Source: a bacterium
Lineage (GTDB): Bacteria; UBA8248
Length of the DNA: 64,000 bases
Assembly (NCBI GenBank): GCA_965202625.1
Contig: CBDBBI010000010.1
Span: forward strand, 2,368,001-2,432,000
Direction of reading: 5' to 3'
Of this stretch, positions 13,880 to 50,808 are shown piece after piece. The notes under the pieces were generated by a model. The model was not told where the DNA came from and searched no databases. It saw nothing but the letters and a program-made list of their open reading frames with translations. A program made the translations under genes and the position numbers. The first letter of the stretch is position 1, and every line of letters starts with the position of its first letter.

Positions 13880-14010
13880 CGGGCTGAATAACATAACCCC
13901 CCGGCGACGATGCGCGCGAGGGGTGGTCGTTTCCCCGATCGGGGAATTGCCTGCGAAGCTTGTTCACTTCTTGTGGTGAAAAGCAACCAGGCATCGATCA
14001 GCTAAAACTG
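13880..14010 (-). ncRNA. Putative tracrRNA, divergent from cas9; anti-repeat at 13973-14008
   Basis: 13973-14008 (GTGGTGAAAAGCAACCAGGCATCGATCAGCTAAAAC) matches the reverse-complemented repeat at 29/36 with a 17-nt perfect core; perfect hairpin TTCCCCGATCGGGGAA at 13931-13946 lies downstream on the minus strand; ends approximate, strand inferred. Confidence 0.75.
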
Positions 14011-14061
14011 CTATATTTCTACGCCATCTTGTTCATCTTGTCAAGGAAGGAGACATTTAAC

Positions 14062-29643: not shown

Positions 29644-31554
<1,911 letters not shown>

Positions 31555-31602
31555 GGGAGTACCTGGTCTGGGCGATGAAGGGGTGCGGCTTTGCGGCGGG
31601 TG

Positions 31603-32406
31603 TTAGTCATGGCGAGCGATGAACTCCAGAATGGCCTGGTTGAACTCGGCAGATTTTTCGAGATAGACGAAATGGCCGCCCGCCTCAAAAACTTTCAGTT
31701 CCGCCCCGGGTATGGCGTCGCGCAACTGTTGGGAGTAATAGAGCGGGGTGACGACGTCGTCTCTCGCAACGGCCACCAGCACCGGGTGCGTGATTTGCCC
31801 CAGGCGCGCCAGTTGATCGTGGGCGATGATGCAGTCGATTCTCTCCGCCATGATCTCGGCCGGAGGCGCGTTGCGGATCGCCTCGTTCTCCTGCTCTTCT
31901 ATCGCTTGGGCGTTGTCGGCGAAAAATTCGGGGCTATGCAGGGTGAACGTGGAGAATCTCGTGTAGGTTTCCCATCCCATCTCCAGCAGGACTTTTTTGC
32001 GCACGCTGAACTGGCGGGTGAAATACGCGTCGCTTCTGGGCCAGGAGCTCACGATGGAGGCGCTTTTGACGCGGGCGGGATGGTCAATGCACATCACCTG
32101 TATGATGGCCCCGCCGGTGGAACTTCCGACGAGGTGCGCATTTTCTATGTCCAGACTATCCATGATGGCGGTGACGTCTTTCGCCATGCGGGGCACGCTG
32201 TAGACGCCGGGGGGCTTGTCGCTTTTTCCCGTCCCTCTGTGGTCATGCAGAACGAGGGGCCTGTTTCGGGAGAAGGCGTCGATTTGCTGCGTCCAGGACG
32301 CGCGCACCCCTCCTAATCCGCTGATCAAAAATACGGGCGTCCCCGCATGGTGCGGGTTGATGACTTCATAGTCGATCAAGACGCCTTCGGAGTTTACGGC
32401 CGGCAT
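31603..32406 (-). CDS. Alpha/beta hydrolase (RutD/PcaD-like)
   Basis: [13 protein letters not shown], nucleophile elbow GSSTGG, GGH. Confidence 0.88.
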
Positions 32407-32472
32407 GGAAAGTTTCCCCCTGTTTCCCTGTTTCCGTGATGGCGAATGGTGAAGTGGAAAAATACTTGCAAA

Positions 32473-33915
32473 TTACTTTGCGAGTTCGCCCAGAATAACG
32501 GCAAGTTGATGGATTTCATCTTCTCTCACGCATCGCAGGTCGAGCACCACCCTGTCCCCGTGCACCCGCCCCACGACGGGGGGGGTGCTGCTGCGCAGTC
32601 TGGCTTCCAGCGATTCCACAGAAAAATTCCGGGGAGATAGCGTCACGGCACAGCTGGCCAGCTCCGCCAGAGGCATGGCACCGCCGCCCACCATGCCGGA
32701 AGTCTCTTCTATGCGGGCACCCAGAGCGGAGCAGGCTCCCTCCCCCATGAGGCGCATCAAAGATTCCGCGCGTCCTTTCAGTTCTTGCGTGTCGGCGGAC
32801 AACATGCGGAGAGCGGGGAGTGCCGCGCGTGCGGCGTCGGGGTCCAGATACGCCCTGAGCGTTGCCTCCAGGGCGGCGAGGGCGAGTTTGTCTGATCGGA
32901 GAATGCGCATGAGAGGGTGTTGTTTCATCTTCTGTATCCACGTCGCCTTGCCCACGACGATGCCGGCTTGCGGGCCGCCCAGCAGCTTGTCTCCGGAGAA
33001 GGTGACGACGTCGATTCCCGCCCGTATGGATTCTGCCACGGCAGGTTCATGCGGAAGCCCGTCCACCTGAAGAAGCGCGCCGCTCCCCAGGTCTTCGAGC
33101 GTGGGTATGTTTTTCTCCTCCCCCAGCCCGGCGAGTGCATCGCGCGACGCCTCCTCGGTAAAGCCCACGATTCTGTAATTGCTCGTGTGGGCTTTCAGCA
33201 GCAAGCCCGTATTCTCGGTGATGGCTTCTCTGTAGTCCGAGATTCTCGTTTTATTCGTCGTTCCCACTTCCACCAGTTTCGCCCCGCTTTGGCGGATGAT
33301 ATCCGGAATGCGAAACGAACCGCCGATTTCGATCAGCTCTCCCCGCGAGACGATCACCTCGGCGGAGTCGGCCATCGCCTGCGTCGCGAACATCACGGCG
33401 GCGGCGTTGTTGTTGACGACCAATGCCGCCTCCGCACCGGTGAGTTGACGAAGAAGAGACTCCACGTCGCCCCCCCTTTGCCCTCTTCGTCCGAGGCGGA
33501 GGTCGAATTCCAGGTTGGAATATCCCCGCGCGACCTCGCCTACGGCTGCTCTGGCGGCGTCGCTTAACGGGGCGCGGCCCAGGTTCGTGTGCAGGACGAT
33601 TCCTGTGGCGTTGATGACTTTTTTCAAGCCGGGTCGTTTGCGGGAAGCGAGAATCTGCTTTGCGTCGCGGAGGAGGACGTTTCGGAGGGCTTGCGCGGAG
33701 GTGGGCGCGTTTTCCGCAACCCGGGGGGTTTCTTGATCGGTTTGCGCGATCAGAAGCCGTCTTTTCGCGTCGATGGCTTTTCTGGCCGCATCGGATAATG
33801 CGGCGTCTGATGCGCCGTTCGTCTCTTCGCTTTTGAGGCGATGAACGATCTCATCCACAGAGGGCAATAATCGCAGCGTATCAGAGCGGGCGTTTGGCGT
33901 GCGAGGAGAAGTCAT
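32473..33915 (-). CDS. selA: L-seryl-tRNA(Sec) selenium transferase SelA
   Basis: VINATGIVLHTNLGRAPL, VNNNAAA, SRGELIEIGGSFRIP, EVGTTN, FSGDKLLGGPQAG; start ATG 33915. Confidence 0.97.
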   Translation of the reverse strand: MTSPRTPNARSDTLRLLPSVDEIVHRLKSEETNGASDAALSDAARKAIDAKRRLLIAQTDQETPRVAENAPTSAQALRNVLLRDAKQILASRKRPGLKKVINATGIVLHTNLGRAPLSDAARAAVGEVARGYSNLEFDLRLGRRGQRGGDVESLLRQLTGAEAALVVNNNAAAVMFATQAMADSAEVIVSRGELIEIGGSFRIPDIIRQSGAKLVEVGTTNKTRISDYREAITENTGLLLKAHTSNYRIVGFTEEASRDALAGLGEEKNIPTLEDLGSGALLQVDGLPHEPAVAESIRAGIDVVTFSGDKLLGGPQAGIVVGKATWIQKMKQHPLMRILRSDKLALAALEATLRAYLDPDAARAALPALRMLSADTQELKGRAESLMRLMGEGACSALGARIEETSGMVGGGAMPLAELASCAVTLSPRNFSVESLEARLRSSTPPVVGRVHGDRVVLDLRCVREDEIHQLAVILGELAK

Positions 33916-34027
33916 GCCGCATCCTTTATGACGGTACCATGGATGAATATAAGATTGCGGGTTTTGAATGGTCAAGTCGTGCAATCGAAAGCGGGGAGGT
34001 TCGGAGTTTCTCCGCACCGGATCCATC

Positions 34028-34056
34028 TTGACACGCGCGCGCGCCCTTGATAGCGT
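34028..34056 (+). promoter_or_regulatory. Putative sigma70 promoter
   Basis: TTGACA-17 nt-TAGCGT preceded by TGn, upstream of the OB-fold gene. Confidence 0.5.
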
Positions 34057-34159
34057 TCGCGCCCATAAAACCGCTTGTCTGTGTCTGTATGTGGGAGGCG
34101 GCTGTGTATATGCGGCTTGTTCCGGTTGCAGGTTTTCCATCTCAAACGCAGAGCAGCGC

Positions 34160-34846
34160 ATGAATTCGCCCCAGAATGAACCTCCCATTTTTGTTCCCGG
34201 CAAAGGCAAAAAGGCCGTCCCCTTTATGCGGGACGTTTTTACGATTCCCCGGCACCCGCGCCACAAACCCAAACTGATTGGCTCTGTATGCAAGGAATGC
34301 GAGGAGCATTTTTTCCCGAAGATGGGGTCAAAAACCACTTGCGACGTCCCCGCCTGCCCGCGCAGTACGAGCGAAGTGCTTTTGAGCGGGGAGGGAAAGC
34401 TTCTTTCCGCCGCGATTACGCGGTCCTCCGTAGGGGGGGGGGGAGAGCGCGTCTCGGCGGTCATACTCCTGAACGAGGGCATCAAGATAAATTCCCATTT
34501 GATCGGCTGGGAAGGGTATCGGGACATGCTGGTTCCGGGCTCTCCGGTTGCGCTCGTACTGGAAGACCTCGGAGAGAACGAATCGCGCGAAACCCAGGTG
34601 GGGTATGCCTTTCGCCTGGTGACCGGTAGTAGAAAGCCTGTTTTTCCGCCTACGGAGGAGGAAATCCGGGCGGAGGCGGCTCGCGTGCGAAAGGAAAAAC
34701 AAAAAGAAAAACAAAAAGAGCGAGCGGCGGCGAAGAGGAAAGCCGCTTTGTTGAAGAAAAAGAACGAGACGGCGGCGAAAGAACCCGCCTCACAAGAAAC
34801 CACGCGAAAGAAAACGGCCTCCAGAAGCCCCGGAAAGCCCCGCTAG
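34160..34846 (+). CDS. Zn-ribbon/OB-fold (DUF35/ChsH2-like) protein with basic C-terminal tail
   Basis: LIGSVCKECEEHFFP...CDVPAC, LSGEGKL, GYAFR; K/E/A-rich tail. Confidence 0.65.
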   Translation: MNSPQNEPPIFVPGKGKKAVPFMRDVFTIPRHPRHKPKLIGSVCKECEEHFFPKMGSKTTCDVPACPRSTSEVLLSGEGKLLSAAITRSSVGGGGERVSAVILLNEGIKINSHLIGWEGYRDMLVPGSPVALVLEDLGENESRETQVGYAFRLVTGSRKPVFPPTEEEIRAEAARVRKEKQKEKQKERAAAKRKAALLKKKNETAAKEPASQETTRKKTASRSPGKPR

Positions 34847-36947: not shown

Positions 36948-38126
36948 GTGAAACGCGGTGAGACTGGCGAATACGAGATCACGACGGGCGGCGGCGAGAA
37001 CGTCCGGGCTTTCGTTCCCCACCCTCTTCCGCCCAGGCCCCCGCTGGAAGTGGCTGTCCTGCATTCGCCCCTGGAGGAGGCTTCGCTGGAGTTGGGCCGT
37101 CTGGACGGCGTATCCCATCTACTGCCCGCTCCGCACACCTTCCTCTACTCCTACGTCCGGAAAGAGGCTGTTCTCTCCTCCCAAATTGAGGGCACCCAGT
37201 CCTCTTTATCCGATCTTCTGTTGTTCGAGGCGGAGGAGGCGCCCGGCGCGCCCCTGGACGACGTCGTGGAAGTTTCGAACTGCGTGGCGGCGATGGAGCA
37301 CGGATTGGAGCGGATGCGCGGTGGTTTTCCGCTCTCAAGGCGCCTCATTTGTGAGGTGCACGCCAAACTGCTTGAGGGGGGCAGGGGCGACAGCCAGGAT
37401 CCGGGAGAATTCAGACGCTCGCAGAACTGGATCGGCGGCAGCCGACCCGGAACGGCACACTTTGTCCCTCCGCCGGCGCATCGGGTCGCCGATTGCATGT
37501 CGGCACTGGAAAAATTCATCCATGCTCCAGGTTCGGAATTGTCCGCGCTTCTGCGCGCGGGCCTCGCCCACGCGCAGTTCGAGACCATTCATCCCTTCCT
37601 GGACGGCAACGGCCGCATCGGCCGGCTGCTGATCAGCCTCATGCTGTGGCAAGACGCCGTGTTGCGTGCGCCGCTTCTGTATTTGAGCCTCTATTTCAAG
37701 GAAAACCGGAGGGATTACTACGCACTCCTGGGCGAGGTGCGGCGCACCGGCGACTGGGAGGCATGGCTCACGTTCTTTCTTAAGGGCGTGGCGCAGACGG
37801 CGCAGAGTGCCGTCTCGGCTGCGCAGGGGCTGTTGTCCTTGTTTGGGGAGGATAAGACGCGAATAGAACAAGGAGCGGGCCGCGCGGCGCGTTCAGCACT
37901 GCGCGTCCACCAGGTGTTGCAGGAGCGCCCGGTTGCGTCGCTTGGAGGCGTCGTGAACCAAACGCGCCTCTCGTTCCCTACTGCGGCGAACGCCATGAAG
38001 ACCCTCGAGCGGCTGAAAATCGTCGGCGAACTGACGGGCGGGAAGCGCAGCCGCCTGTTTTGCTATGCGCGATACCTCTCCATTCTCAACGAGGGGACGG
38101 AGACCCCGCCGGGCGGTGCGGACTGA
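36948..38126 (+). CDS. Fic family protein with C-terminal winged HTH
   Basis: EAVLSSQIEGT, PGEFRRSQNWIGG, HAQFETIHPFLDGNGRIGR. Confidence 0.94.
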   Translation: MKRGETGEYEITTGGGENVRAFVPHPLPPRPPLEVAVLHSPLEEASLELGRLDGVSHLLPAPHTFLYSYVRKEAVLSSQIEGTQSSLSDLLLFEAEEAPGAPLDDVVEVSNCVAAMEHGLERMRGGFPLSRRLICEVHAKLLEGGRGDSQDPGEFRRSQNWIGGSRPGTAHFVPPPAHRVADCMSALEKFIHAPGSELSALLRAGLAHAQFETIHPFLDGNGRIGRLLISLMLWQDAVLRAPLLYLSLYFKENRRDYYALLGEVRRTGDWEAWLTFFLKGVAQTAQSAVSAAQGLLSLFGEDKTRIEQGAGRAARSALRVHQVLQERPVASLGGVVNQTRLSFPTAANAMKTLERLKIVGELTGGKRSRLFCYARYLSILNEGTETPPGGAD

Positions 38127-38352
38127 AGCCGTCCTCTTGGGGTGCCTCCTCCGCGTCTTATCCGCCCTCCGGATAAGAAACCCCGCCGGGCAGCGCGCAC
38201 ACCCTCCGCCTTGAGTTTCGGCGTCCCCTCGGCTACATTCGCCCCCTATACGCATTGCCATGCGCGCTATGGGCTGCGCGAATTTTTCATTGAGAGAGCG
38301 TTTCGCGCGGTGCGATTGCCGCGCCCCTGCGCGGTTTCGGAAGGAGTGGGGA

Positions 38353-41300
38353 ATGGGGTGCAATTTTCAGACGATGCTCGCGCAGATACGCGCGATATCG
38401 GATTCGGAGGCACAGAAGGGGCGCATCTTCGAGCGGGTGATGAAGAAGTTTTTTGGCGAGGATCCGCTGTATGGGGCGCGCTTCTCGCGCGTCTGGCTCT
38501 GGCCGGAATGGGCGGCGGCACACGAGGGCTTTGATGGGCAGGACATGGGTATCGATCTCGTGGCGGAGGAGCGTGCGGGCGGCTATTGTGCCATTCAGTG
38601 CAAGTGCTACGCGCCGGAGACGCGGATTTCCAGGGCACATATTGATTCGTTCATCTCCGCCTCCAGCCGCCCCATCTTCACCGCCCGCATTCTGGTCGAT
38701 ACCGGCCATCCCTGGGGACCGAGCGCCAAAAAGACCATCGCCGGGCTGCACCCCAAGTGCGACGTGCGCTATCTGGACGATCTGCTGAACCAGTGTTTCG
38801 ACTGGCCCGATCTCGTGCGCGGCACACCGGAAGACCTGCGCTATCGGCGCGAGACGTTTCGCTTGCGTCCGCATCAGCGCGCGGCTTTCCAGGACGTGAT
38901 CGCCGGTTTTCGCACCCATGATCGCGGCAAACTCGTCATGGCGTGCGGTACGGGCAAGACCTTCACCGCGCTTCGCATCGCGGAGGAGTGCGCGGGCGTC
39001 GGCGGACGCGCGCTTTATCTCGTGCCCTCCATCTCCCTTTTCGCCCAGTCCATGCGCGAATGGGCGACGCACAAGGAGATTCCGCACCGCTACGTCGGCG
39101 TCTGCTCGGATACGCGCGCGGGACGGACGGACGAGGACGCCTCGATGGAGGAGCTGGAAATTCCCGTCACCACCGCGCCGCGCAAAATCTCGAACGCACT
39201 GGGCGCGACTTCTGGGGACGCGATGACGATCGTCTTCTGCACCTACCATTCGCTCCGCCTCGTGGAGGACGCCCAGAAGGCGGGCGCACCGCCGTTTGAC
39301 CTCATCGTGTGCGATGAGGCCCACAGGACGACGGGCGTGGAGCGGCCCGAGGGGAAGGAGACGTCCCCCTTCGTGCTCGTGCACGACGCGGAGCGAATCA
39401 AGGCGAAAAAGCGGCTTTATATGACGGCCACTCCGCGCCTCTACACCGAGAGTGCGAAAAAAAAGGCGGCACGCCACGACGTGGAGGTGTTCTCCATGGA
39501 CGATGCCGCCATATACGGCCCGGAGTTTCACCGCCTTCCCTTCTCACGTGCCGTGGAGCAGGATTTGCTCTCCGACTACAGGGTCGTCGTGTTCGGCGTG
39601 TATGAACAGCAGGTGGACGCCGCCCTTCAGGCACACATCGCCGAGGGCGAGAACGCGCTCGACATCACCGACGCGGCGAAGGTCGTCGGCTGCTGGCGCG
39701 CCCTGCAAAACCCGGAGAACATAAAAAAGAAGGAGGCGACCCCGCCCCGTCCCCTGCGGTGTGCCATCGCGTTCACCAACACGATTCGCGGGTCGAAGCG
39801 CCTGGAGGCGCGTTGGGGGGACGTCGTCGCGCGGGCACGCGACCTTCTGCCCGAGGAGGAGCGCGAGAACGCGCTGCGTTGCGAAACGAAGCACGTGGAC
39901 GGCCAGCACAACGCCCTGGAGCGCAAGTTGCGCCTCGACTGGCTCAAGGGCGATTCCACCGATTGCAACGGCGCCTGCCGCATTCTCTCCAACGCGCGGT
40001 GTCTCTCGGAGGGCATCGACGTCCCCGCCCTCGACGCGGTGCTCTTCATGAATCCGCGCAACAGCCACGTGGACGTCGTGCAGGCCGTCGGGCGCGCCAT
40101 GCGCAAGGCGGAGGGCAAGGAATACGGCTACATCATTCTGCCGGTCGCCGTGCCGGCGGGAATGGACCCGGCCCGCGCCCTGGACGACAACGAGCGCTTC
40201 GCCGCCGTCTGGAGCGTTCTGCGCGCCCTGCGCTCCCACGACGACAGGTTCGACGCCAGAATCAACCAGATCGACCTCAACCAGAAGCTACCGGAGAACC
40301 TCATCATCTTCACGGGGGATGACGACGTGGAAGCGGAGACGGCCGAGCTGCCCTTTCCGCCGCTTGAGCTGCCGCCCGGTGCGATGTTCGCCAAAATCGT
40401 GGAGAAATGCGGAGACAGAAAATACTGGCAAACCTGGGCGAAGGACGTCGCGGACATATTCGCCCGCCTGGTCGCCGGCATCCAAAACCTTCTGAAAAGT
40501 CCCGAAAACGAAACCCTGCGCGAGTGGTTCGGAGATTTTCACGCGGAGCTCCAGGTCTCCATCAACGGGTCGATCACGGGGGAAAACGCCGCCCACATGA
40601 TGGCCCAGCACGTCCTCACGCGGCCTGTTTTCGACGCCCTTTTCGAGGGCTACGATTTCGCGGGGAAAAACCCCGTCTCGCAGGCCCTTGATGCCCTGCG
40701 GCGGGATTTCGGCGAGTTCGGCTTTGAGGACGAGATTCAGGATATGGCGCCTTTCTACGAGAGCGTGCGTACCCGCGCGCGGGGCCTCGACAGCCCCGAG
40801 GCGCGCCAGCGCGTGCTCATGGAGCTCTACGAAAACTTCTTCGCCACCGCCATGAAGAAGGACGCCGACAGGCTGGGCGTCGTCTATACCCCGCCCGAGG
40901 TGGTGGATTTTATCCTGCACAGCGCGGATCACGTTCTGCGCGAGGAGTTTGGCCGCAGCCTGAGCGATGCGGGCGCACACGTCCTCGACCCCTTCACGGG
41001 TACGGGCGTCTTTCTCGTGCGCCTGCTCCAGTCCGCACTGGTTCGGGACGCCGACCTGTCGAGGAAATACCACAGGGAGCTGCACGCCAACGAGATCGTC
41101 CTGCTCGCCTACTACATCGCGGCTGTTCACGTGGAGGAGGCATACCACGGCCGCGCACGCGCGGATGCCTACGCGCCTTTTGAGGGAATCGCGCTGACGG
41201 ACACCTTCAACCTGGCGTCCGACCGCGCGTTGCCGGGGACGTGGCTTCCCGACAACAGCAAGCGGGTGGAACGCCAGCGGAAAGCGCCCATTCGGGTGAT

Positions 41301-43083
41301 CGTCGGCAATCCGCCCTGGTCGGCGGGACAAAGGAGCGCGGCGGACGAGAACCAGAACGTGAATTATCCCGAACTGGAGCGGCGCGTGACCGAGACCTAC
41401 GCCGCCCGCTCCAGGGCGACGAACAAGAACAGCCTCTACGATTCCTACAAGATGGCGATGCGCTGGGCGTCCGACAGAATAGGGGAGGAGGGCGTGGTCG
41501 CCTTCGTCACCAACGGCTCGTGGATCGACGGCAACGCGGATTCCGGCGTGCGCGCCTGCCTGGCGGAGGAATTTGACAAAATATACGTTCTGAATCTGCG
41601 AGGCAACGCGAGAACTTCCGGCGAGCGAAGGCGCGCGGAAGGGGACAACGTGTTCGGCCAGGGCTCCCGTGCGCCCGTGGCGATCGCCATCCTCGTCCGC
41701 TCCGCAAGGGAGCGGAAAGGCATCTTCTATAAAGATATTGGGGATTACCTCAAGCGGGAGGAGAAGCTGGCGTTTCTGCGCGATGCGAAGTCAATCGCCG
41801 GAATCGACGACTGGCGGAAGATCACCCCCGACGCCCACCACGACTGGATAGGGCAGCGCAGCGCGGCGTTCCAGCGGCTCTATCCGGTGGGGTCGAAGGA
41901 GGCGAAGGCGGGCCGGGCGAACGATACGATTTTTAGTTTATATTCACAAGGTTTGGCGACCAACCGGGACGCCTATATCTACAACTTCTCCCGCACGGCT
42001 TGCGCGGAGAACGCCCGCAAGATGGTTGCGGATTACGCCGCCGCCTTGTGCGAACTGGAAGAAGCCGGAAGCCGGACTCTCGACCTGGACGCCATCACAC
42101 GCCGCCATTCCGCAAACCTTCGGTGGGACAGGGAACTCAGGAACAATCTGAGACGCGGGAAACACGCTGCGTTTGATGACGCCTATGTTTGGAAGGCCGC
42201 ATATCGCCCCTTTGTGAAGACGAACTGTTACGCTGATTACACTTTCGCACACTGCAAGTTCCAAGTAGACCGCATCTTTCCGTCCGCCGATAGTGAGAAC
42301 CGCGCCATTTGCATCTCCGGTATCGGCTCCGCCAAACCTTTTTCCGCCCTCTTGGTCGATACGATGCCGGATTTGAATTTTAACGCGGCGGGTGCCCAGT
42401 GCTTTCCGCGTTATCGGTATGAGAAGCCCGCAGGCCAGGACGTTCTGCCGAATATCGCCGGCGGCATGGAGCGGGTGGACAACGTGACGGACGCCGCCCT
42501 GCGCACCTTCCGCGTCCGCTATGGCGAGGATGGAATAACCAAGGACGACGTTTTTGATTACGTCTATGGCGTCCTCCACGCCCCCGACTACCGAGAGCGT
42601 TTCGCGAACGACCTGGCGAAGGAGCTGCCGCGCATCCCTCTGGCGTCTGGTTTTCACGCCTTCTCCGCCGCCGGGCGCGCCCTCGCCGCCCTGCATCTGG
42701 GCTATGAGACCTGTGCGGAGCATCCGCTGGAAGTCGCCTTTTCAGGCGTGGGGCAGCCGCGCGACGCGGATTTCCGCCTCGGGGCGCGCGCCATGCGCTT
42801 CGCCGACAAGGAGGAGAAGACGACCCTCATCGTGAACGAGCACGTCCGGCTGGAAGGCATCCCGAAGGCGGCACACGGCTACGTCGTGAACGGAAGGACG
42901 CCCCTGGAGTGGCTCATCGACCGCTACCGATTCGTGAAGGACAAGCACAGCGGCATCGTGAACGACCCCAACGGCTGGTTTGATAACCCGCGCGACTTGA
43001 TAGCCGCCGTCCGGCGCGCCGTCTTCCTGAGCGTCGAGACGGCCCGCATCGTGGATTCCCTCCCCCCCGCGCTTGATTCCTGA
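38353..43083 (+). CDS. Type ISP restriction-modification enzyme (nuclease-SF2 helicase-N6 methyltransferase-TRD)
   Basis: GIDLVAEE..AIQCK nuclease; MACGTGKT, DEAH, MTATP, QAVGRAMRK helicase; DPFTGTG and GNPPW methyltransferase; YRPF, ELPRIP; start uncertain (38260-38374). Confidence 0.93.
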   Translation: MGCNFQTMLAQIRAISDSEAQKGRIFERVMKKFFGEDPLYGARFSRVWLWPEWAAAHEGFDGQDMGIDLVAEERAGGYCAIQCKCYAPETRISRAHIDSFISASSRPIFTARILVDTGHPWGPSAKKTIAGLHPKCDVRYLDDLLNQCFDWPDLVRGTPEDLRYRRETFRLRPHQRAAFQDVIAGFRTHDRGKLVMACGTGKTFTALRIAEECAGVGGRALYLVPSISLFAQSMREWATHKEIPHRYVGVCSDTRAGRTDEDASMEELEIPVTTAPRKISNALGATSGDAMTIVFCTYHSLRLVEDAQKAGAPPFDLIVCDEAHRTTGVERPEGKETSPFVLVHDAERIKAKKRLYMTATPRLYTESAKKKAARHDVEVFSMDDAAIYGPEFHRLPFSRAVEQDLLSDYRVVVFGVYEQQVDAALQAHIAEGENALDITDAAKVVGCWRALQNPENIKKKEATPPRPLRCAIAFTNTIRGSKRLEARWGDVVARARDLLPEEERENALRCETKHVDGQHNALERKLRLDWLKGDSTDCNGACRILSNARCLSEGIDVPALDAVLFMNPRNSHVDVVQAVGRAMRKAEGKEYGYIILPVAVPAGMDPARALDDNERFAAVWSVLRALRSHDDRFDARINQIDLNQKLPENLIIFTGDDDVEAETAELPFPPLELPPGAMFAKIVEKCGDRKYWQTWAKDVADIFARLVAGIQNLLKSPENETLREWFGDFHAELQVSINGSITGENAAHMMAQHVLTRPVFDALFEGYDFAGKNPVSQALDALRRDFGEFGFEDEIQDMAPFYESVRTRARGLDSPEARQRVLMELYENFFATAMKKDADRLGVVYTPPEVVDFILHSADHVLREEFGRSLSDAGAHVLDPFTGTGVFLVRLLQSALVRDADLSRKYHRELHANEIVLLAYYIAAVHVEEAYHGRARADAYAPFEGIALTDTFNLASDRALPGTWLPDNSKRVERQRKAPIRVIVGNPPWSAGQRSAADENQNVNYPELERRVTETYAARSRATNKNSLYDSYKMAMRWASDRIGEEGVVAFVTNGSWIDGNADSGVRACLAEEFDKIYVLNLRGNARTSGERRRAEGDNVFGQGSRAPVAIAILVRSARERKGIFYKDIGDYLKREEKLAFLRDAKSIAGIDDWRKITPDAHHDWIGQRSAAFQRLYPVGSKEAKAGRANDTIFSLYSQGLATNRDAYIYNFSRTACAENARKMVADYAAALCELEEAGSRTLDLDAITRRHSANLRWDRELRNNLRRGKHAAFDDAYVWKAAYRPFVKTNCYADYTFAHCKFQVDRIFPSADSENRAICISGIGSAKPFSALLVDTMPDLNFNAAGAQCFPRYRYEKPAGQDVLPNIAGGMERVDNVTDAALRTFRVRYGEDGITKDDVFDYVYGVLHAPDYRERFANDLAKELPRIPLASGFHAFSAAGRALAALHLGYETCAEHPLEVAFSGVGQPRDADFRLGARAMRFADKEEKTTLIVNEHVRLEGIPKAAHGYVVNGRTPLEWLIDRYRFVKDKHSGIVNDPNGWFDNPRDLIAAVRRAVFLSVETARIVDSLPPALDS

Positions 43084-43180
43084 CGCCCCTTGCTTCGTTC
43101 ATCCAGTTCTCGCCCCCTTGACGCCGATGCCGCCCGTTTTGCGACCCATCGGGATTCGACGTCCCGCCCCGCGCTTCTCG
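43018..43180 (+). repeat. Direct repeat A, copy 1 (last ~21 codons of type ISP gene plus ~100 nt downstream)
   Basis: Aligns end to end with 44350-44512. Confidence 0.9.
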
Positions 43181-43238
43181 CCTGGCGGCCGTGGCCAGTG
43201 CGGGCCACCATTTCGGATACCGGATGACGGAGGGGGAG

Positions 43239-43463
43239 ATGGAGAATTTCGGCGCCAGCCAGAACAAGCGCGCCGCGCACGTATTCGGAGCGCCGGGGGA
43301 TGGTCCCTCTTTTCCGGCGACCACGGTCGAGAGAGAGGAGGCGCTCTTCCGCCGCTGGGTGCTCAAATACTTCGACCATTGGGCGCCAGAATCCTTCCGT
43401 TGGCTGGCGGAGAAGCTGGGAGGGCGGGCGGAAATCCACCCGGGCGGCCAAGAAAGTCCCTGA
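43239..43463 (+). CDS. Small hypothetical ORF (74 aa) coupled to ATP-grasp gene
   Basis: G/A-rich ribosome site, ATG 43239; stop overlaps next start (TGATG). Confidence 0.4.
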   Translation: MENFGASQNKRAAHVFGAPGDGPSFPATTVEREEALFRRWVLKYFDHWAPESFRWLAEKLGGRAEIHPGGQESP

Positions 43464-44362
43464 TGCGCTTGCCCAGGTTATCGCGAACAACTCTTCTTCG
43501 AGCGATTCTTCCGAAGAACGACTGGGGCGACGCCCTGTACGCTACGCTCTACTACCTGATCCGGCTCGGACGCTGGCCCCGCGGACGCAACCCGAGGCGC
43601 TTCAACGACTACCTCTACAGGCTGAAGGTGGACGGTTCGCTGCAGGATCCACTCTGCGTTTTCACGACGGACAAGGAATACGCGAAATACTTTATCGCCT
43701 CGGTGGTCGGGTGGGAACACACCATCGAGACCTACCGTGTCCTGCGGACGAAAGCGGAAGTCGACGGGCTGGCGCTGGATCGCTTTCCTTGCGTGGTGAA
43801 GCCCACGCACATGAGCGGACCAGCCCAGGTGCACCCTGATGCGGACAGCCCCCTGCACCGAGACCTGCTGAGGGAATGGTTCGCCGCCGACTTCTACCAC
43901 GAGACCAGAGAGCAGAACTATCGTCCGCTCGCTTCGAAGGTCATCATTGAGGAATTCGTCTCCGAAGACGGGCGAACGATACCGGAAGACTATAAGGTCT
44001 TCTGCTTCGGAGGGGCTCCGAAAATCGTCCAGGTGGACCAGGACCGCTTCTCCGGCCACACCCTATCCCTCTTCTACGACACTTCGTGGAACAGGCTGCC
44101 CATCAAGCTCCGCTACCCCGAAATCTCGTCCACCTGCCCCCGACCGGCGATGCTGGAAAAGATGCTTCATATCGCGGAGCGGCTCGCCCGACAGTTCGCG
44201 TTCGTTCGCGTGGACATGTATGCCGTGAACGGCCGGGTGAAGGTGGGCGAGTTGACGCACTGCCCCGTATCCGCCGCCGGATCCGCCGGAGAAAAGATAC
44301 GCCTCTCTTCCGGAGAAATCACGCTGGGCGGGTTTTTTGAACTCGACGTGCCGTCTTCCTGA
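43463..44362 (+). CDS. TupA-like ATP-grasp amidoligase
   Basis: TDKEYAK, VVKPTHMSG, EQNYRP..KVIIEE, DYKVFCFGG, QVDQDRF, FVRVDMY, GELT. Confidence 0.85.
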   Translation: MRLPRLSRTTLLRAILPKNDWGDALYATLYYLIRLGRWPRGRNPRRFNDYLYRLKVDGSLQDPLCVFTTDKEYAKYFIASVVGWEHTIETYRVLRTKAEVDGLALDRFPCVVKPTHMSGPAQVHPDADSPLHRDLLREWFAADFYHETREQNYRPLASKVIIEEFVSEDGRTIPEDYKVFCFGGAPKIVQVDQDRFSGHTLSLFYDTSWNRLPIKLRYPEISSTCPRPAMLEKMLHIAERLARQFAFVRVDMYAVNGRVKVGELTHCPVSAAGSAGEKIRLSSGEITLGGFFELDVPSS

Positions 44363-44512
44363 GCGCCGATGCCGCCCGCATCGTGGATTCCCTCCCCCCG
44401 CGCTTGATTCCTAGCGGGCGTCCGCTTCGTTCATCCATCTCTCGCCCCCTTGACGCCGATGCCGCCCGTTTTGCGCCCCATCGGGACTCGACGTCCCGCC
44501 CCGCGCTTCTCG
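44350..44512 (+). repeat. Direct repeat A, copy 2
   Basis: Near-identical to 43018-43180, including the ARIVDSLPPALDS* coding tail. Confidence 0.9.
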
Positions 44513-44694
44513 TCTCACCAAACCCACTCGCCTGCGCCTCGGATGGGCGCGGAGCGTCCCCGCTTGCGATTCGACAAAAATCATGGCGAACGTCCCGAAA
44601 AATGCCGTTTGAGGGTGCCTGAACGGCTCGTAAAACGGCGTTGCAAAAGTCGTTCAAAAGGTCGTCGAGCGTGATGGCGGCGCGGGCGTCCTCA
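44508..44694. repeat. Element B, copy left of pentapeptide array
   Basis: CTCGTCTCACCAAACCC...GCGTTGCAAAAGTCGTTCAAAAG...GGCGGCGCGGGCGTC shared with 49928-50172. Confidence 0.85.
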
Positions 44695-44731
44695 GTTCGC
44701 GGCTCTCGCTCAGCCGCTTCCACGTCGGCAT
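44654..44731 (-). pseudogene. Stub of a fifth pentapeptide-array unit
   Basis: Same TAAACCATG junction; ATGCCGACGTGGAAGCGGCTGA matches the start at 47445 at 20/22 nt, then homology stops. Confidence 0.7.
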
Positions 44732-44734
44732 GGT

Positions 44735-45991
44735 TTAGCGTCCGCCTTTGTCGTCCGTCTCCGGCGTTGGGCTTTCCGAGATGGCTTCTTCATACTCTTT
44801 AATCCACGCTTCGGCTTGTTCGGGGGTGTAGGCTCCGGTTTCGGCGCCGCTATCCTTCGGCAACCCATAGATTGGCGGCTTGTCGATATGCGGCTCCAGC
44901 CGCTCTCTCAATTCCTGTGCTTTTTCAGCGGACAAGCCTTCGAGGATGGAAACCATATCTTTCATCATCAGTCCGCCCTCGAAAATGACGCCGGAGAGAT
45001 CGCTCTCCCGGCCGACTAACGACCTCATGCGTCTCGCAAACCCATCGGGAATACATATTGTTTCACTGGCCGCCCCCTGCAACTGCGCCCACATGAGACT
45101 CGCCCCTTGCAACTGCGCACCCCCGAGAACCGCTCCTTGCAACTGCGCCTGATTGAGAGCCGCCCCTTGCAACTGCGCGCGCACGAGATCCGCCCTTTGC
45201 AACTGCGCACGCCAGAGACTCGCCCCTTGCAACTGCGCCTGATTGAGACTCGCCCCTTGCAAGTGCGCAACCCCGAGAACCGCCCCTTGCAACCGCGCCT
45301 CCTTGAGATACGCCCCCTGCAAACGCGCGCCCAAGAGATTCGCCCCTCCCAGGCGCGCTTTTAGAAGGTAGGCTCCGTTCAGCCAGCTGCCTGCAAGGTT
45401 GATGTGGAGACCCTGAAAGACGTCATGCTCCTGCACGAAAAGCAGGGTCAGCAGGGTTTGGATTTCCTCGGAAGGCTCCGCCAAGTAAGCCTTTGGATAC
45501 TTGGACTCTCTCGTCGTCCGGCGGACGTGCGCGCAGAGAACGTCGAGCACCGTCCCCCGCAATTCCTGGTTGTCTTCCGCCAGATGGAAGAGCTCGTAGG
45601 CCCCGCCCAGACGAACGGAATCCGATTTGTGGCCCATGTGTTCAATGGCGTTTTTCAGACGCTCCTGCCGCAGCCCCTTCTCGGCGTTCTCGTTGGTCTT
45701 GGCCTGTTCTTCCGTAGCATTGACCTGCGCACGCGCCGTCTCCTCCATCGCCTTGGCGCGCCGGTGGGCTGTCACAGCCTGTATGGCGAGCAGGACGCCG
45801 CCCATGGCGATGCCCAGAGATTTTAGAATCTGATATTTGTTTTCTATTCCGAAGAGGTAAAAAGCCCATTTCGGATCTTCGGAGAAGGCGATGACCGAAA
45901 AAAACACCAACAAACCCACAAGCAGGGATACCAACAAAAAAACGGGCGGGGAGTCTTTCCACCGGGCTTTCAGCCAGTGCAGTGTCGGCAT
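44735..45991 (-). CDS. Membrane-anchored pentapeptide repeat protein (unit 4, intact)
   Basis: 2 N-terminal TM, ERLKNAIEH..VRLGGAYEL helical domain, 10 decapeptide repeats (GAxLxxAQLQ). Confidence 0.9.
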   Translation of the reverse strand: MPTLHWLKARWKDSPPVFLLVSLLVGLLVFFSVIAFSEDPKWAFYLFGIENKYQILKSLGIAMGGVLLAIQAVTAHRRAKAMEETARAQVNATEEQAKTNENAEKGLRQERLKNAIEHMGHKSDSVRLGGAYELFHLAEDNQELRGTVLDVLCAHVRRTTRESKYPKAYLAEPSEEIQTLLTLLFVQEHDVFQGLHINLAGSWLNGAYLLKARLGGANLLGARLQGAYLKEARLQGAVLGVAHLQGASLNQAQLQGASLWRAQLQRADLVRAQLQGAALNQAQLQGAVLGGAQLQGASLMWAQLQGAASETICIPDGFARRMRSLVGRESDLSGVIFEGGLMMKDMVSILEGLSAEKAQELRERLEPHIDKPPIYGLPKDSGAETGAYTPEQAEAWIKEYEEAISESPTPETDDKGGR

Positions 45992-45994
45992 GGT

Positions 45995-47445
45995 TTAGCC
46001 TCCGCCTTTATCGCCTGTCTCCGGCGTTGGGCTTTCCGAGATGGCTTTTTCGTATTCGGCAATCCACGTTTCGGCTTCTTGGCGGGTGTAGGCTCCGGTT
46101 TGTGCGCCGCTCCTCTCCGGCAATCCATAGACTAGCGGCTGGCCGATATGCGGCTCCAGTTCCTTTTTCAACACTTGTGCTTTTTCATTGGACAAGCGTT
46201 CAAGGATGGAATCCACGTCTTCCCTCGTCAATCCGCCACTGAAAATGACGCCGGAGAGTGCGCTCTCACTGCCGACTAACGACCTCATGCGTCTCGCAAA
46301 CCCATCGGGAATATATATTGTTTCACTGGCCGCCCCCTGCAACTGCGCCCACATGAGACTCGCCCCTTGCAACTGCGCACCCCCGAGAACCGCCCCTTGC
46401 AACTGCGTCCTTCTGAGAGACGCCCCATGCAACTGCGCATCCCAAAGATTCGCCCCATGCAACTGCGCATCCCAAAGATTCGCCTCTTGCAACTATCCAT
46501 GAGTATCGCCCCTTGCAACTGCGCGTCCACGAGAACCGCCCCTTGCAACTGCGTATTCCAAAGACTCGCTCCTTGCAGCCGCGCATTTGAAAGGTGGGCG
46601 CCGTTCAGCCAGCTGCCCGCCAGGTGGATGCGGAGACCCGCAAAGACGTCATGCTCCTGCGTGAAAAGCAGGGTCAGCAGGCTTTGGATTTCCTCGGAAG
46701 GCTTCTTCGAGCATTCCTTTTGATACTCGGAACCGCTCGTCGTCCGGCGGACGTGCGCGCAGAGAACGTCGAAAACCGTCCGCCGCAATTCCTGGTTGTC
46801 TTCCGCCAGATGGAAGAGCTCGTAGGCCCCGCCCAGGCGAACGGAACCCGAGTCATCGCCCATGTGTTCAATGGCGTTTTTCAGACGCTCCTGCCGCAGC
46901 CCCTTCTCGGCGTTCTCGTTGGTCTTGGCCTGTTCTTCCGCCGTCCTCTCCATCGCCTTGGCGCGCCTGTGGGCTGTCACAGCCTGTATGGCGAGCAGGA
47001 CGCCGCCCATGGCGATGCCCAGAGATTTTAGAATCTGATATTTGTTTTCTATTCCGAAGAGGTAAAAAGCCCCTTTCAGGTCTTTCTGGAGATTCGGGGC
47101 TTCAAAGAACGAGATGAACAAAAAAGACGCCGCTAAAACCACAAGTAGAGACACCAACAAAAAAACGGGCGGGGAGTCTTTCCACCAAGAAAATATACGG
47201 GTTTTCACAAACGGGATGGCGAGTAAGCCTATGATGATGGTGCCCAAGGCGATGCCCAGAAATTGCAGAATCTGAAATTTGTCACCTATACTGAAGATGT
47301 AATAAGCCCATTTCGGGGTTTCGAAGAACAAGATGACCAAAAAAGACGCCGCTAAAACCACAAGCAGGCACACCAACAGAAAAACGAGCGGGGAGTCTTT
47401 CCGCCAAGACCAGATACGGGTTTTCAACCACTTCCACGTCGGCAT
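45995..47445 (-). pseudogene. Pentapeptide repeat protein (unit 3), frameshifted near 46495, duplicated TM module
   Basis: ORFs 46285-47445 and 45995-46492 join across an apparent 4-nt deletion in one repeat (ATG GAT ^ AG TTG CAA). Confidence 0.85.
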
Positions 47446-47487
47446 GGTTTAGCCTCCGCCTTTATCGTCCGCCTCCGGCGTTGGATC

Positions 47488-48642
47488 TCACGAGATGGCT
47501 TCTTCATACTCCTTAATCCACGCTTCGGCTTCTTCGGAAGTGTAGGCTCCGGTTTGGGCGCCGCTCCCCTCCGGCAACTCATGGCTTGTCTGCTGGCACC
47601 TATGCGGCTCCAGCCGCTCTCGCAATTCCTCTGCTTTTTCATCGGACAAGCCTTCAAGGATGGAATCCATATCTTTCATCATCAGTCCGCCACTGAAAAT
47701 AACGCGGCAGATATCGCTCTTCCGGCCGATTAAAATTTCCATGCGTTCCGCAAACCCATCGGGCCAGCTTCCTGCACTGACCGCCCCATGCAACCGAGCG
47801 TCCCCAAGATCCGCCCCTTGCAACTGCGCATTCTCGAGATTCGCCCCATGCAACCACGCACCCCAGAGCACCGCCCCTTGCAACCGCGCGCCCTGAAGAT
47901 CCGCCCCTTGCAAATGCGCATACCAGAGATTCACCCCTTGCAACTGCGCCTTCCAGAGATTCACCCCTTGCAACCGTGTCCCTATGAGATGCGCCCCTTG
48001 CAGTTGCGTGCCCTGAAGATTCGCCTTTTGCAGGCGCGCATTTTGAAGGTTCGCGCCGTTCAGCCAGCTGCCCGCCAGGTGGATGCGGAGACCCGCAAAG
48101 ACGTCATGCTCTTGCACGAAAAGCAGGGTCAGCAGGCTTTGGATTTCCTCGGAAGGCTTCGTAGGGCACTCGTTTTGATACGCAGCCCCTCTCGTCGTCC
48201 TGCGGACGTGCGCGCAGAGAACGTCGAGCACCGTCCCCCGCAATTCCTCGTTGTCTTCCGCCAGATGGAAGAGTTCGTAGACCCCGCCCAGACGAACGGA
48301 ATCCGAGGCGTTGCCCATGTATTCCATGGCGTTTTTCAGACGTTCCTGCCGCAGCCCCTTCTCGGTGTTCTTCGCCGTCTCCTCCATCGCCTTGACGCGC
48401 TTCTGGGCTGCCACAGCCTGTATGGCGAGCAGGACGCCGCCCATGGCGACGCCCAGAAATTTCAGAATCTGAAATTTGTCACCTATCCCGAAGAGACAAA
48501 AAACCCATTCCGGATCTTCGGAGAAGGCGATGACCAAAAAAACCAGCAACAAACCCACAAGCAGGGATAGCAACAAAAAAACGAGCGGAGAGTCTTTCCA
48601 CCAAGAACAGATACGGGTTTTCAGCCAGTGCAGTGTCCGCAT
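47488..48642 (-). CDS. Membrane-anchored pentapeptide repeat protein (unit 2), stop 13 codons early
   Basis: Same architecture, 9 decapeptides; in-frame tail DPTPEADDKGGG* continues after TGA to 47449. Confidence 0.88.
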   Translation of the reverse strand: MRTLHWLKTRICSWWKDSPLVFLLLSLLVGLLLVFLVIAFSEDPEWVFCLFGIGDKFQILKFLGVAMGGVLLAIQAVAAQKRVKAMEETAKNTEKGLRQERLKNAMEYMGNASDSVRLGGVYELFHLAEDNEELRGTVLDVLCAHVRRTTRGAAYQNECPTKPSEEIQSLLTLLFVQEHDVFAGLRIHLAGSWLNGANLQNARLQKANLQGTQLQGAHLIGTRLQGVNLWKAQLQGVNLWYAHLQGADLQGARLQGAVLWGAWLHGANLENAQLQGADLGDARLHGAVSAGSWPDGFAERMEILIGRKSDICRVIFSGGLMMKDMDSILEGLSDEKAEELRERLEPHRCQQTSHELPEGSGAQTGAYTSEEAEAWIKEYEEAIS

Positions 48643-48645
48643 GGT

Positions 48646-49834
48646 TTAGCCTCCGCCTTTATCGCCCGTCTCCGGCTTTGGGATTTTCGGGGTGGCTTTT
48701 TCGTATTCGGCAATCCACGCTTCTGCTTGTTCGGGGGTGTAGGCTCCGGTTTCGGCGCCGCTATCCTTCGGCAAGTCATGGCTTGGCGGCTTGTCGATAT
48801 GCGGCTCCAGTTTTTTTCTTAATACCTGTGCTCTTTCATTGGATAAGCCTTCAAGGATGGAATCCACGTCTCCCCTCGTCAGTCCGCCCCCGAAAATGAC
48901 GCCGGAGAGCGCGCTCACACCCCCGACTAACGACTTTATCCGTTCTACGAAAAGAAAGGGGTCCCAGATCCCTTCACTGACCACCGCTTGCAATTTCGCG
49001 CCTTGAAGATTCGCCCCTTGCAACTGCGTCTCCCAGAGATTCGCCCCTTGCAACCGTGCAGCACTGAGATTCGCTTCTTGCAACTGTGCGCCCTGAAGAT
49101 CCGCCTCTTGCAACTGCGCACCGAAGAGAATCGCCCCTTGCAACTGCGTATTCCAAAGATTCGCCCCTCCCAGGCGCGCATTTTGAAGGTTCGCGCCGTT
49201 CAGCCAGCTGCCCGCCAGGTGGATGTGGAAACCCGCAAAGCCGTCATGCTCTTGCGTGAAAAGCAGGGTCAGCAGGCTTTGGATTTCCTCGGAAGGTTTC
49301 TCCGGGTAATCCTTGCGATACGCATCCCCGCTCGTCATCCGGCGGACGTGCGCGCAGAGAACGTCGAGCACCGTCCGCCGCAATTCCTGGTTGTCTTCCG
49401 CCAGATGGAAGAGCTCGTAGGCCCCGCCCAGGCGAACGGAATCCGATTTGTGGCCGATGTGTTCGATGGCGTTTTTCAGACGCTCCTGCCGCAGCCCCCT
49501 CTCGGCGTTCTCGTTGGTCTTGGCCTGTTGTTCCGTAGCATCGACCTGAGCACGCGCCGTCTTCTCCATCGCCTTGGCGCGCCTGTGGGCTGTCACAGCC
49601 TGTATGGCGAGAACGACGCCGCCCATGGCGACGCCCAGAAATTTCAGAATCTGAAATTTGCGATCTATCTTGTCATCTATCCCGAAGAGGTAAAAAGCCC
49701 CTTTCAGGATCTTTCTGGAGATTCGGTTCTTCGGAGAACAAGATGAACAAAAAAAGCGCCAAAAGCACCGCTAAAACCGCAACGAGGAACAGCAACAACA
49801 AAAAAACGGGCAGGGAGTATTTTCGGCTCGGCAT
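48646..49834 (-). pseudogene. Pentapeptide repeat protein (unit 1), +1 frameshift near 49709
   Basis: ATG 49834 (MPSRKYSLPVFLLLL) is out of frame with ORF 48646-49626; GATCCTG versus GACCTG in unit 3; 7 decapeptides. Confidence 0.8.
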
Positions 49835-49927
49835 GGACGTTCCACACTCTCCTCAATCGAGCGAAAAGCCATAGCCTAGAACGCCTCCCTATCACCGGTT
49901 CAAGCGGGCTTGCATGGGCGCGCCGCA

Positions 49928-50172
49928 TCTCGTCTCACCAAACCCTGCTCGCCTGCGCCTCGAATGGGTGCGGAGCGTTCCCCGCTTGGGGCTCGGACAA
50001 AAATCATCATTGCGAACGGCTTGGAGAAACAGCGGATTTTCCGAGGCGAAACGTCCTGGGAATGACCGTTTCAGGGGGATTGAACGGCTCCTCAAACGGC
50101 CGTGCAAGGGCGTTGCAAAAGTCGTTCAAAAGGGCGTCAAGCGTGAGGGCGGCGCGGGCGTCGGCGTCCTCA
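49928..50172. repeat. Element B, copy right of pentapeptide array
   Basis: Direct repeat of 44508-44694 with extra internal sequence. Confidence 0.85.
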
Positions 50173-50808
50173 CCGTTGCTCTCGACGTCGGAATGCGTGG
50201 AGGCGTCGGCACTGCCGGGCGGAGTCGCGCCGCGTATTGGATGCAATTTCTTGAATGCGTGCTTATGGGCGCCTTCGGCGTCGGGGGGAGGGGGCGAAGC
50301 GGCGGCGCCAGCTCGCCGTCTGCGCGCGGGTGATGCGGTAGAGCATGAAGCCGCCGGCGCTCACCGAGACGAGAATGAGCGCGAAGCCTATCGTCATCGC
50401 CCGCTGAAACGGAGTGGCACGGCGACGCTTTTTGGACTTTGGAGGCGTCCTCGCGCGCGCTGAGGGCGGGCGTTTCCACCTCGGGCAGCCAGAGAAAGGG
50501 TGCCGCCACCATCCCCGCCACGAAGAGGAAGGGAAGCAAAAGGCGCGTGAGATACAGACGCAGCAATGGCGAGAACCTCCCGCCGCCGAATATAAGGGGT
50601 TTCCCCCCGCGCGACAATGCCGTCACCGCCGCTCGCGCCTCCTCCGGGGCGTCCGCGCGATCTGCGCGTGGGAAAGCCGCCGTCCCCCGCTTCTGCGGGT
50701 TCCGGTTTGCACCGTCCGGCGAAATGTGATCGCGTCCGTTTTTTGCCGTATGATGCGCTTCGGTTTCGTCTATCTTTCATTTTTCGTTCCAGTGGGAAGG
50801 GGGAGCGG

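Follow-up and report, generated by a model that had tools for sequence, protein, structure and literature searches.

A tandem array of pentapeptide-repeat genes

The stretch of DNA analysed here (the window) is the 64,000 nucleotides (nt) from position 2,368,001 to 2,432,000 of contig CBDBBI010000010.1 (assembly GCA_965202625.1), from a bacterium of the lineage UBA8248, and our subject is a tandem array of genes for membrane-anchored pentapeptide-repeat proteins (PRPs) that lies entirely on its minus strand at 44,717-49,834. An earlier note on this DNA had described four head-to-tail paralogs followed by the stub of a fifth, a description that the open reading frames (ORFs), the junctions and the alignment confirm and to which the strand, previously unstated, can now be added. 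In gene order, the units are U1 (48643..49834), U2 (47446..48642), U3 (45992..47445) and U4 (44732..45991), delimited by the ORF list and alignment, with checks for breaks in U1, U2 and U3 and for conserved residues in U2. After the fourth TAA-ACC junction comes the 15-nt stub ATGCCGACGTGGAAG (44717..44731, minus strand), which repeats the opening 15 nt of U3 exactly and then passes into the flank that carries a direct repeat, β. The shared junction GGCGGA(G/C)GC-TAA-ACC-ATG was also correctly recognized. It occurs four times, with GGAGG located 7 nt 5' of the ATG and replaced by GGACG in the U4-to-stub junction alone, and as it reads the ribosome site falls within the final codons of the preceding unit. 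A repeat search recovers the units as four-copy families of 300 nt with 81-91% identity, far beyond chance, and across 1104 ungapped columns the units are 81-87% identical to one another.

The array is partly decayed, and U4 alone is fully intact, with a coding sequence at 44735..45991 that specifies 418 amino acids (aa). U1 opens with a short head of its own, MPSRKY..., and contains one additional T at 49709, so that its membrane hairpin and the remainder are read in different frames; the long ORF of U1 (49626..48646, 326 aa) starts at an internal ATG at 49626, inside the second transmembrane helix (TM2). U2 is otherwise in frame and is cut to 384 aa by a TGA at 47490-47488, with the loss of its final 13 codons. 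In U3 the hairpin is duplicated in frame (219 nt, 47445-47227), and the 30-nt-periodic repeat block has a deletion of 4 nt at 46497/46496, which divides the unit into the ORFs 47445..46285 and 46492..45995. Neither the U1 nor the U3 frameshift lies in a homopolymer run. The earlier statement that all units share a transmembrane anchor, a helical domain, a pentapeptide block and a conserved C-terminal domain (C-domain) therefore holds for the DNA, and for the protein only in U4.

The repeat search also locates in U4 a 30-nt-periodic tract at 45070..45347 (minus strand) that encodes decapeptides, each of two pentapeptides, and equivalent tracts on the same strand in U3 (46331-46587), U2 (47781-48002) and U1 (48987-49168). 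Two smaller features of the units may be recorded here. A run of seven T residues (CCCGTTTTTTTGTTG) is found at the start of the first transmembrane helix (TM1) in every unit (45940-45960, 47160-47180, 48575-48595 and 49800-49820); these runs are in frame at present and no sign of slippage was found at them. The premature stop of U2 (47488-47490) is a TGA, and SelA and SelB are encoded in the window at 29647-34803.

Predicted architecture of the intact unit

AlphaFold 2, given 119 homologs, models U4 with a mean predicted local distance difference test score (pLDDT) of 92.1. In the model, TM1 (residues 15-36) is followed by a short loop helix and then by a continuous helix (52-119) made up of TM2 and a stalk of ~45 residues, after which come a helical domain (124-186), a β-helix (~198-310) and a small α/β C-domain (318-405). 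Lys and Arg residues precede TM1 and follow TM2 and so flank the hairpin on both ends, from which the positive-inside rule predicts that its N- and C-terminal ends both face inward and that the β-helix is cytoplasmic. The regular single-residue strands found every 5 residues over 198-310 in the model are those of a right-handed four-sided β-helix, and the top Foldseek matches of the model in the PDB are all pentapeptide proteins.

Pentapeptide repeats are the sole domain detected by Pfam (PF00805, 2.6e-22), with scores of 78.5 bits for U4, 96.9 for U2, 71.6 for U1 and 51.8 for the N-terminal part of U3 against a cut-off of 20.2. Searches of the PDB by sequence and by fold (Foldseek, full model) gave matches confined to the repeat block. 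Folded alone (pLDDT 78.9), the C-domain had no Foldseek match in the PDB at E ≤ 0.001, and its best score in the ESM Atlas, 0.88, was under the lead level of 0.9. The family cut-offs of NCBIfam are not reached for Qnr (21.9 vs 240), MfpA (29.7 vs 360) or HetL (63.8 vs 260). With Qnr, MfpA, AlbG and McbG the window protein has in common a right-handed four-sided β-helix of A-x-L-x-x repeats, but those proteins are soluble, ~200 aa in length and consist of the repeat alone, whereas the window protein adds the hairpin, stalk, helical domain and C-domain.

The repeat unit is the decapeptide G-A-x-L-x-x-A-x-L-Q. Among 68 repeats, taken from the window units and three close relatives (P0002-P0004, described below), positions 3, 5, 6 and 8 have entropies of 1.8-3.4 bits and the remaining positions at most 1.1 bits. 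We take the four variable positions to be the outward-facing ones of pentapeptide folds, in which case the variation would sit on the protein surface.

Exchange of segments between the units

The patchwork similarity that the earlier note had read from six shared peptide strings is borne out by the unit translations, which contain all six, and by an alignment of the units that refutes a single congruent tree. The 87 informative sites are divided 37/33/17 among the three possible unrooted four-unit trees, and sites supporting the same topology are clustered along the alignment, forming 24 runs where 56.4 ± 4.3 are expected (p ≤ 5e-5, 20,000 shuffles). In a GENECONV-like test, which scores the longest run of concordant variable sites in each pair of units against 5000 shuffles, shared tracts are significant in five of the six pairs. 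The strongest is that of U3 and U4, which spans 79 nt and 31 variable sites (p = 0.0002), followed by U1-U2 (p = 0.0036), U1-U4 (p = 0.0052), U2-U4 (p = 0.0080) and U2-U3 (p = 0.0106); the sixth pair, U1-U3, gives p = 0.38.

The exchanged patches are short (35-79 nt), and the units also differ by indels of 21 and 42 nt (7 and 14 codons) in the stalk, of 12 and 19 nt in the hairpin and of entire 30-nt repeat units, which leave each unit with 7 to 10 decapeptides. The units are paralogs between which short patches have been exchanged and in which 21-nt stalk segments, 30-nt repeats and a whole hairpin have been gained or lost. Such patches and indels are what unequal crossover and short-patch gene conversion leave behind in tandem copies, and the idea of an accordion locus shuffled by these processes finds its support in the tree conflict, the clustering of runs, the shared tracts and the indels alike. 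Given the shortness of the tracts and the 13-19% divergence of the units, most of the exchanges are not recent. A similar mosaic extends to P0002 and P0003, which are proteins encoded on other contigs. The pairwise ratio of nonsynonymous to synonymous substitution rates (dN/dS), an estimate that is rough under gene conversion, is 0.58-1.55 across all four domains and is not raised in the repeat block alone. We are confident that one gene was expanded in tandem in this lineage and that unequal crossover and gene conversion have shaped the resulting array.

A conserved and uncharacterized family

A word-based search scored 8000 candidates and gave 2517 proteins at E ≤ 0.001, the best of which have the full architecture, and with a profile of the TM2, stalk and helical part the number of matching representatives among 1.84 billion was 249 at E ≤ 1e-30, rising to 1062 at ≤ 1e-10 and to 8944 at ≤ 0.001. 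One close relative, P0004 (437 aa, 65% identical), is a fifth paralog that lies on the same contig beyond the window. A quick maximum-likelihood tree places U1, U2, U4 and P0002-P0004 together in one clade, supported by a Shimodaira-Hasegawa-like approximate likelihood ratio of 100; this tree leaves aside U3, which is broken, and L038, L043, L014, L015_7213, L032_9273, L039, L022 and L012_6194, which were missed by the domain-cutting pattern. The units retain 73-77 of the 78 positions that are at least 95% conserved among 115 distant homologs (74 in U1 and 77 in U3), and U2 is altered at five family-conserved residues, A79V, I116M, H118Y, L119M and A131V. The family thus delineated, with its hairpin, stalk, helical domain, pentapeptide β-helix and C-domain, is conserved, unnamed and uncharacterized, and we found no published description of it in the literature on pentapeptide repeats in connection with restriction, defence islands or TIR domains.

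A scan of one genome per species gave 135 relatives, from which we kept 79 loci (L001-L079), all in metagenome-assembled genomes (MAGs) and at most 61% identical to U4. They span Latescibacterota, Nitrospirota, Binatota, Acidobacteriota, Gemmatimonadota, Pseudomonadota and others. The comparison of copy number across relatives that the earlier note had proposed shows one copy at 73 of these loci and two or three copies on the same strand at the other six. At the multi-copy loci the additional copies show 44-55% identity and are separated by 93-2226 nt, one exception being the split first copy of L066 (70% identical over 173 aa). With its four units and 3-nt junctions, the window array is the largest and tightest among the 79 loci.

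In three relatives, P0121 (935 aa), P0122 (966 aa) and P0262 (880 aa), a TIR-TPR segment stands in place of the membrane hairpin and stalk. The first two were found by looking for helical-domain proteins of greater length and the third by profile search; P0121 and U4 share 55% identity over 338 aa. Replacement of a transmembrane N-terminus by TIR is common among the effectors of defence systems. The family has no match in the phage collection and two distant matches (38-39%) in the plasmid collection. One of the two, 38.5% identical over the helical domain, is encoded on a linear plasmid of Streptomyces sp. NBC_00841 (L080, NZ_CP108855.1 121807-123117), the only cultured carrier that we encountered, where it is an orphan amid SMI1/KNR4, CDI-immunity and IS21 genes.

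Linkage to type III restriction-modification genes

Clustering of the ORFs that flank the related genes gave two recurrent neighbours, which Pfam and PADLOC identify as the Mod and Res subunits of type III restriction-modification (R-M) systems (PADLOC models MTase_III PDLC03644, 8.7e-187, and REase_III PDLC03650, 4.3e-168). At 34 of the 79 loci, a same-strand Mod gene starts 21-46 nt beyond the point where the C-domain match ends, and 32 of these loci also have Res. At six further loci Mod lies 278-4674 nt downstream, at four there are fragments of Mod or Res only, and at two the downstream sequence is too short. Both genes are full length at 32 loci, and there the distance from the PRP stop to the mod ATG takes the value -1 nt at 22 and 3 nt at six. 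Such distances indicate translational coupling, and outside the window the family typically supplies the first gene of a PRP-mod-res operon. The window units are assigned to the same family as these operon-linked PRPs by their predicted architecture, their conserved residues and a tree position inside the family.

The co-occurrence with defence genes that could thus be examined over 79 loci is not the one that had been anticipated. The earlier note had suggested a role in defence or host interaction from the position of the array behind genes for a Fic protein and a type ISP enzyme, and this reason fails, since homologs of neither are found beside the relatives (0/79 loci); a recurrence of type ISP, Fic or ATP-grasp genes was considered and rejected on this count. 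The defence link itself draws support from the type III mod-res genes and from the TIR-TPR fusions.

The Mod of the PRP-mod-res module is 62-84% identical between MAGs of different phyla, and many of the flanks of L001-L079 have ankyrin, WD40, Sel1, TPR and LDL-receptor-repeat proteins. The module appears to have spread horizontally within one kind of habitat, which may resemble sponge-associated communities.

Origin of the unit boundary

The Mod genes start MPTLHWLTRD, with the consensus ATGCCGACCCTGCACTGGCTG, and the beginnings of the window units closely resemble this start. Over the first 21 nt the best matches to mod starts are 20/21 for U4, 19/21 for U2 and 18/21 for U3, and from nt 22 to 60 the match is at random level. 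The inter-unit junction (stop, 3 nt, ATGCCGACACTGCACTGGCTG) matches the PRP-to-mod junction plus the first seven mod codons, and the spacing of stop, 3 nt and ATG is that of six PRP-to-mod junctions. The pattern of a PRP stop, 0-3 nt and the mod start ATGCCGAC..CTG.ACTGGCTG is present four times in the window. The head MP[TI][LW].WL occurs in none of 82 full-length PRP ORFs at other loci. Because the 21-nt head and the spacing match mod and the other PRP ORFs are without the head, the boundary between units appears to be a copy of the PRP-to-mod junction of the operon. A leader of ~90 nt upstream of U1 (49835..49925, minus strand) is conserved with the region 5' of PRP in L018, L036, L004 and L005 and may be a shared promoter or leader. 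The β flank and the sequence past the stub were also considered as relics of mod and rejected, as tblastn with 12 Mod proteins gave nothing better than E = 0.076 and an ungapped comparison gave p = 0.23.

A proposed link to defence and the alternatives

Pentapeptide-repeat proteins are very common and mostly without an assigned function, and the few that are understood mimic DNA. A coupled PRP gene before type III mod-res in several phyla, together with versions that carry TIR, leads to a concrete and testable hypothesis for one large subgroup of these proteins, namely that it is a partner or guard of translocating restriction enzymes. Taken whole, the reading that the window holds a lineage-specific, partly decayed paralog array of a defence-linked family has, in our judgement, an even chance of being right. 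The array would have descended from a PRP-mod-res operon, or from a relative that already held the mod head; mod and res would later have been lost from the locus, and the array would have come to lie in a rearranged patch of lower GC content between direct repeats, next to other defence genes. The array is in itself a clear natural example of a gene that multiplies, exchanges patches and decays, and its boundary would record an origin from an operon junction.

For the family as a whole, a defence-linked sensor function is a tentative proposal and the weakest step in the scheme. The soluble module might be a DNA-like bait or sensor held beneath the membrane, which would cooperate with, or guard, a translocating restriction enzyme, and the N-terminal part would be the output, either as the membrane hairpin or, in the fused relatives, as TIR. 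Exchange between paralogs would vary the outward-facing repeat residues. A decoy role is possible. In its most far-reaching form, which we consider unlikely, the proposal would make the family the third component of a type III R-M lineage, a membrane-tethered, DNA-like bait made together with Mod that would sense phage proteins attacking or evading restriction, or the loss of its partner, and would reply via an interchangeable N-terminal effector; in this genome the gene would have become independent of mod-res and multiplied into an array in which intact and broken copies trade patches and so renew the bait surface.

Type III systems of the EcoP15I type are described as two-gene systems, Mod plus Res, and the PADLOC models matched here cover two genes only, whereas in one lineage, at the 34 loci noted above, a member of this family stands directly 5' of mod-res, and its unit boundary in the window copies that junction. 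PrrC, in the EcoprrI type I operon, offers a parallel as an extra gene in a restriction operon, the idea being that such a gene detects interference with restriction and sets off a second line of defence, but it has no relation to the family in sequence or fold, and a nuclease domain is absent from the family. In Pycsar, CBASS and Thoeris, TIR and transmembrane effectors are interchangeable; the present family resembles them in that its conserved module occurs with either a two-helix membrane hairpin or TIR domains at the N-terminus, and it differs in having no cyclic-nucleotide-binding or signal-producing partner, and its sensor would be the pentapeptide β-helix. Pentapeptide repeats are named as variable modules in conflict systems in two papers (PMC7159879, PMC10853773), and another reports that the pentapeptide proteins McbG and QnrB failed to inhibit BREX (PMC7261183).

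Several results weigh against a defence-linked array derived from such an operon. Type III genes are absent within 10 kb at 33 of the 79 loci, where the neighbours are mixed, and a tblastn search of the 64-kb window with the L006 Mod and Res proteins finds neither gene at E ≤ 1e-8, so that the array would be tied to the operon by homology only. PADLOC-DB v2 gives no family for U4, U2, U1 or the L002 homolog. The single-copy genes of L018 and L036, which group beside the window clade in the quick tree, already start MSTLNWLK and MQIPNWLK and have a leader conserved with that of U1; the mod-like head may therefore predate the array, and the direction of transfer is unproven. The sequence past the stub matches mod no better than expected (13.3/39 vs 11.8 ± 2.2 ungapped, p = 0.23). 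Finally, the dN/dS values observed in every domain and the two broken units are explained by relaxed constraint no less well than by diversification.

The alternative that survives best is that the protein is a regulator or tether of restriction and nothing else, its DNA-like β-helix binding the DNA cleft of Mod or Res so that the enzyme is held or silenced at the membrane; the protein itself would have no output, and the window copies would be useless relics. The coupling with mod, with its 1-nt overlap in 22 of 32 loci, agrees with this explanation, as do the membrane anchor and long stalk, the state of the window array, in which half of the units are broken, and the solved structures of MfpA and Qnr, which are DNA-like gyrase binders according to their PDB entry descriptions. 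An intact copy is, however, kept without nearby type III genes at 33 of the 79 loci, U4 and most of the conserved residues are maintained in the window without mod-res, and the TIR-TPR fusions replace the membrane part, which suggests an output module rather than a mere anchor. We consider a pure regulator improbable, and the intact orphans and TIR fusions favour a candidate autonomous sensor-effector over it.

We see a smaller chance that the family is not related to defence at all and is a housekeeping or topoisomerase-protecting membrane pentapeptide protein that hitch-hikes in variable genome islands. The absence of a PADLOC match and the orphan state of the distant homolog on the Streptomyces plasmid agree with this, and so do the mixed neighbours at the 38 loci without an adjacent Mod. 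Among 104 neighbouring ORFs at these loci, Pfam finds AAA_21/AAA_15 ATPases with DUF4276, transposases, HNH nucleases and DNA methylases, and further neighbours are ankyrin, WD40, Sel1 and TPR repeat proteins and metabolic genes. In a single case, L013:11413-13374 (a Nitrospirales MAG), a gyrB-like gene lies directly 3' of the PRP gene, a neighbour of note since solved pentapeptide proteins bind gyrase. Against a family unconnected with defence stand the position-specific, same-strand and overlapping coupling to mod at 34 of 79 loci in several phyla, the TIR fusions, and scores far under the Qnr and MfpA cut-offs.

The earlier note had gone further and proposed a candidate diversifying system with a variable receptor or decoy role. 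Read as programmed diversification, the array would be a cassette system in which an expressed copy receives segments from units that are broken or silent, yielding a variable receptor or decoy. Short-patch mosaicism, variability concentrated at the putative outward-facing repeat positions, and the near-complete sets of conserved residues in the broken units U1 and U3, as would befit donor cassettes, could be read in this way. Tandem or dispersed paralog families that gene conversion homogenizes, the silent-cassette systems pilE/pilS and vlsE among them, show short-patch exchange among paralogs of which some are defective, but the window array has no dedicated expression site or known conversion machinery, its product is predicted to be cytoplasmic and its exchanges look old. 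Each unit comes with a start and a ribosome-binding site of its own, and a single expression site is not evident. No recombinase or reverse transcriptase domain was found by Pfam among the 111 window ORFs of at least 170 aa, and there are no inverted-repeat pairs in 42800-50600. A diversity-generating retroelement would differ in having a reverse transcriptase, and the repeats of the array are whole-gene paralogs; a shufflon or invertible segment would differ in its inverted repeats and recombinase. With tracts that are short, units that are 13-19% divergent and in two of four cases broken, a dN/dS of 0.6-1.5 in every domain and no specific rise in the repeat block, and related loci that are single-copy in 73 of 79 cases, neither programmed diversification nor a role as a receptor outside the cell is supported, and we hold the cassette explanation to be slightly less probable still than a family outside defence. 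That the mosaic and frameshifts are artefacts of mis-joined or collapsed repeats or of consensus errors, a known hazard of tandem 1.2-kb repeats in short-read assemblies and of an assembled contig such as this one, is very improbable given that units with this divergence and with unit-specific indels are not easily collapsed, that neither frameshift is in a homopolymer run, and that a like mosaic occurs in the independent P0002 and P0003.

Genomic surroundings of the array

The GC content of the array is 0.56-0.60, compared with 0.62-0.69 in its flanks. The entire array is bracketed by the β direct repeat, whose upstream copy on the gene strand lies at 49941..50162 and whose downstream copy lies at 44520..44690, with 85-86% identity in two blocks; β has no match in Rfam. 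A second direct repeat, α, brackets a gene with a TupA-like ATP-grasp domain (43073..44362, plus strand, domain at residues 198-401), which separates the type ISP gene from the array. The first α copy (43012-43183) overlaps the 3' end of the type ISP gene by ~70 nt, and the second (44344..44515) is 89-95% identical to it. The α pair looks like the scar of an insertion or of a Campbell-type integration. Scans of the window with Rfam (gathering scores) and for tRNA genes found nothing, and a scan of 43000-50700 for promoters and terminators did no better than shuffles.

With CRISPR-Cas9, a Fic protein of the SoFic kind and a type ISP enzyme, the window is rich in defence genes. The type ISP R-M enzyme (1607 aa; Pfam and a PADLOC type ISP/IIG match) is encoded at 38260..43083 on the plus strand, convergent with the array and not part of its operon, and the Fic protein (PADLOC SoFic model, 2.7e-117) is encoded at 36948..38126 on the same strand as the type ISP gene. 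Cas9 (13960-17070) and Cas1 (17066-17956) adjoin a CRISPR array of ~74 units at 18533-23444, with a 36-nt repeat and a 66-nt period. A third, partial copy of β (86% over 64 nt) is found at 8955-9018, in an unrelated intergenic region 36 kb off.

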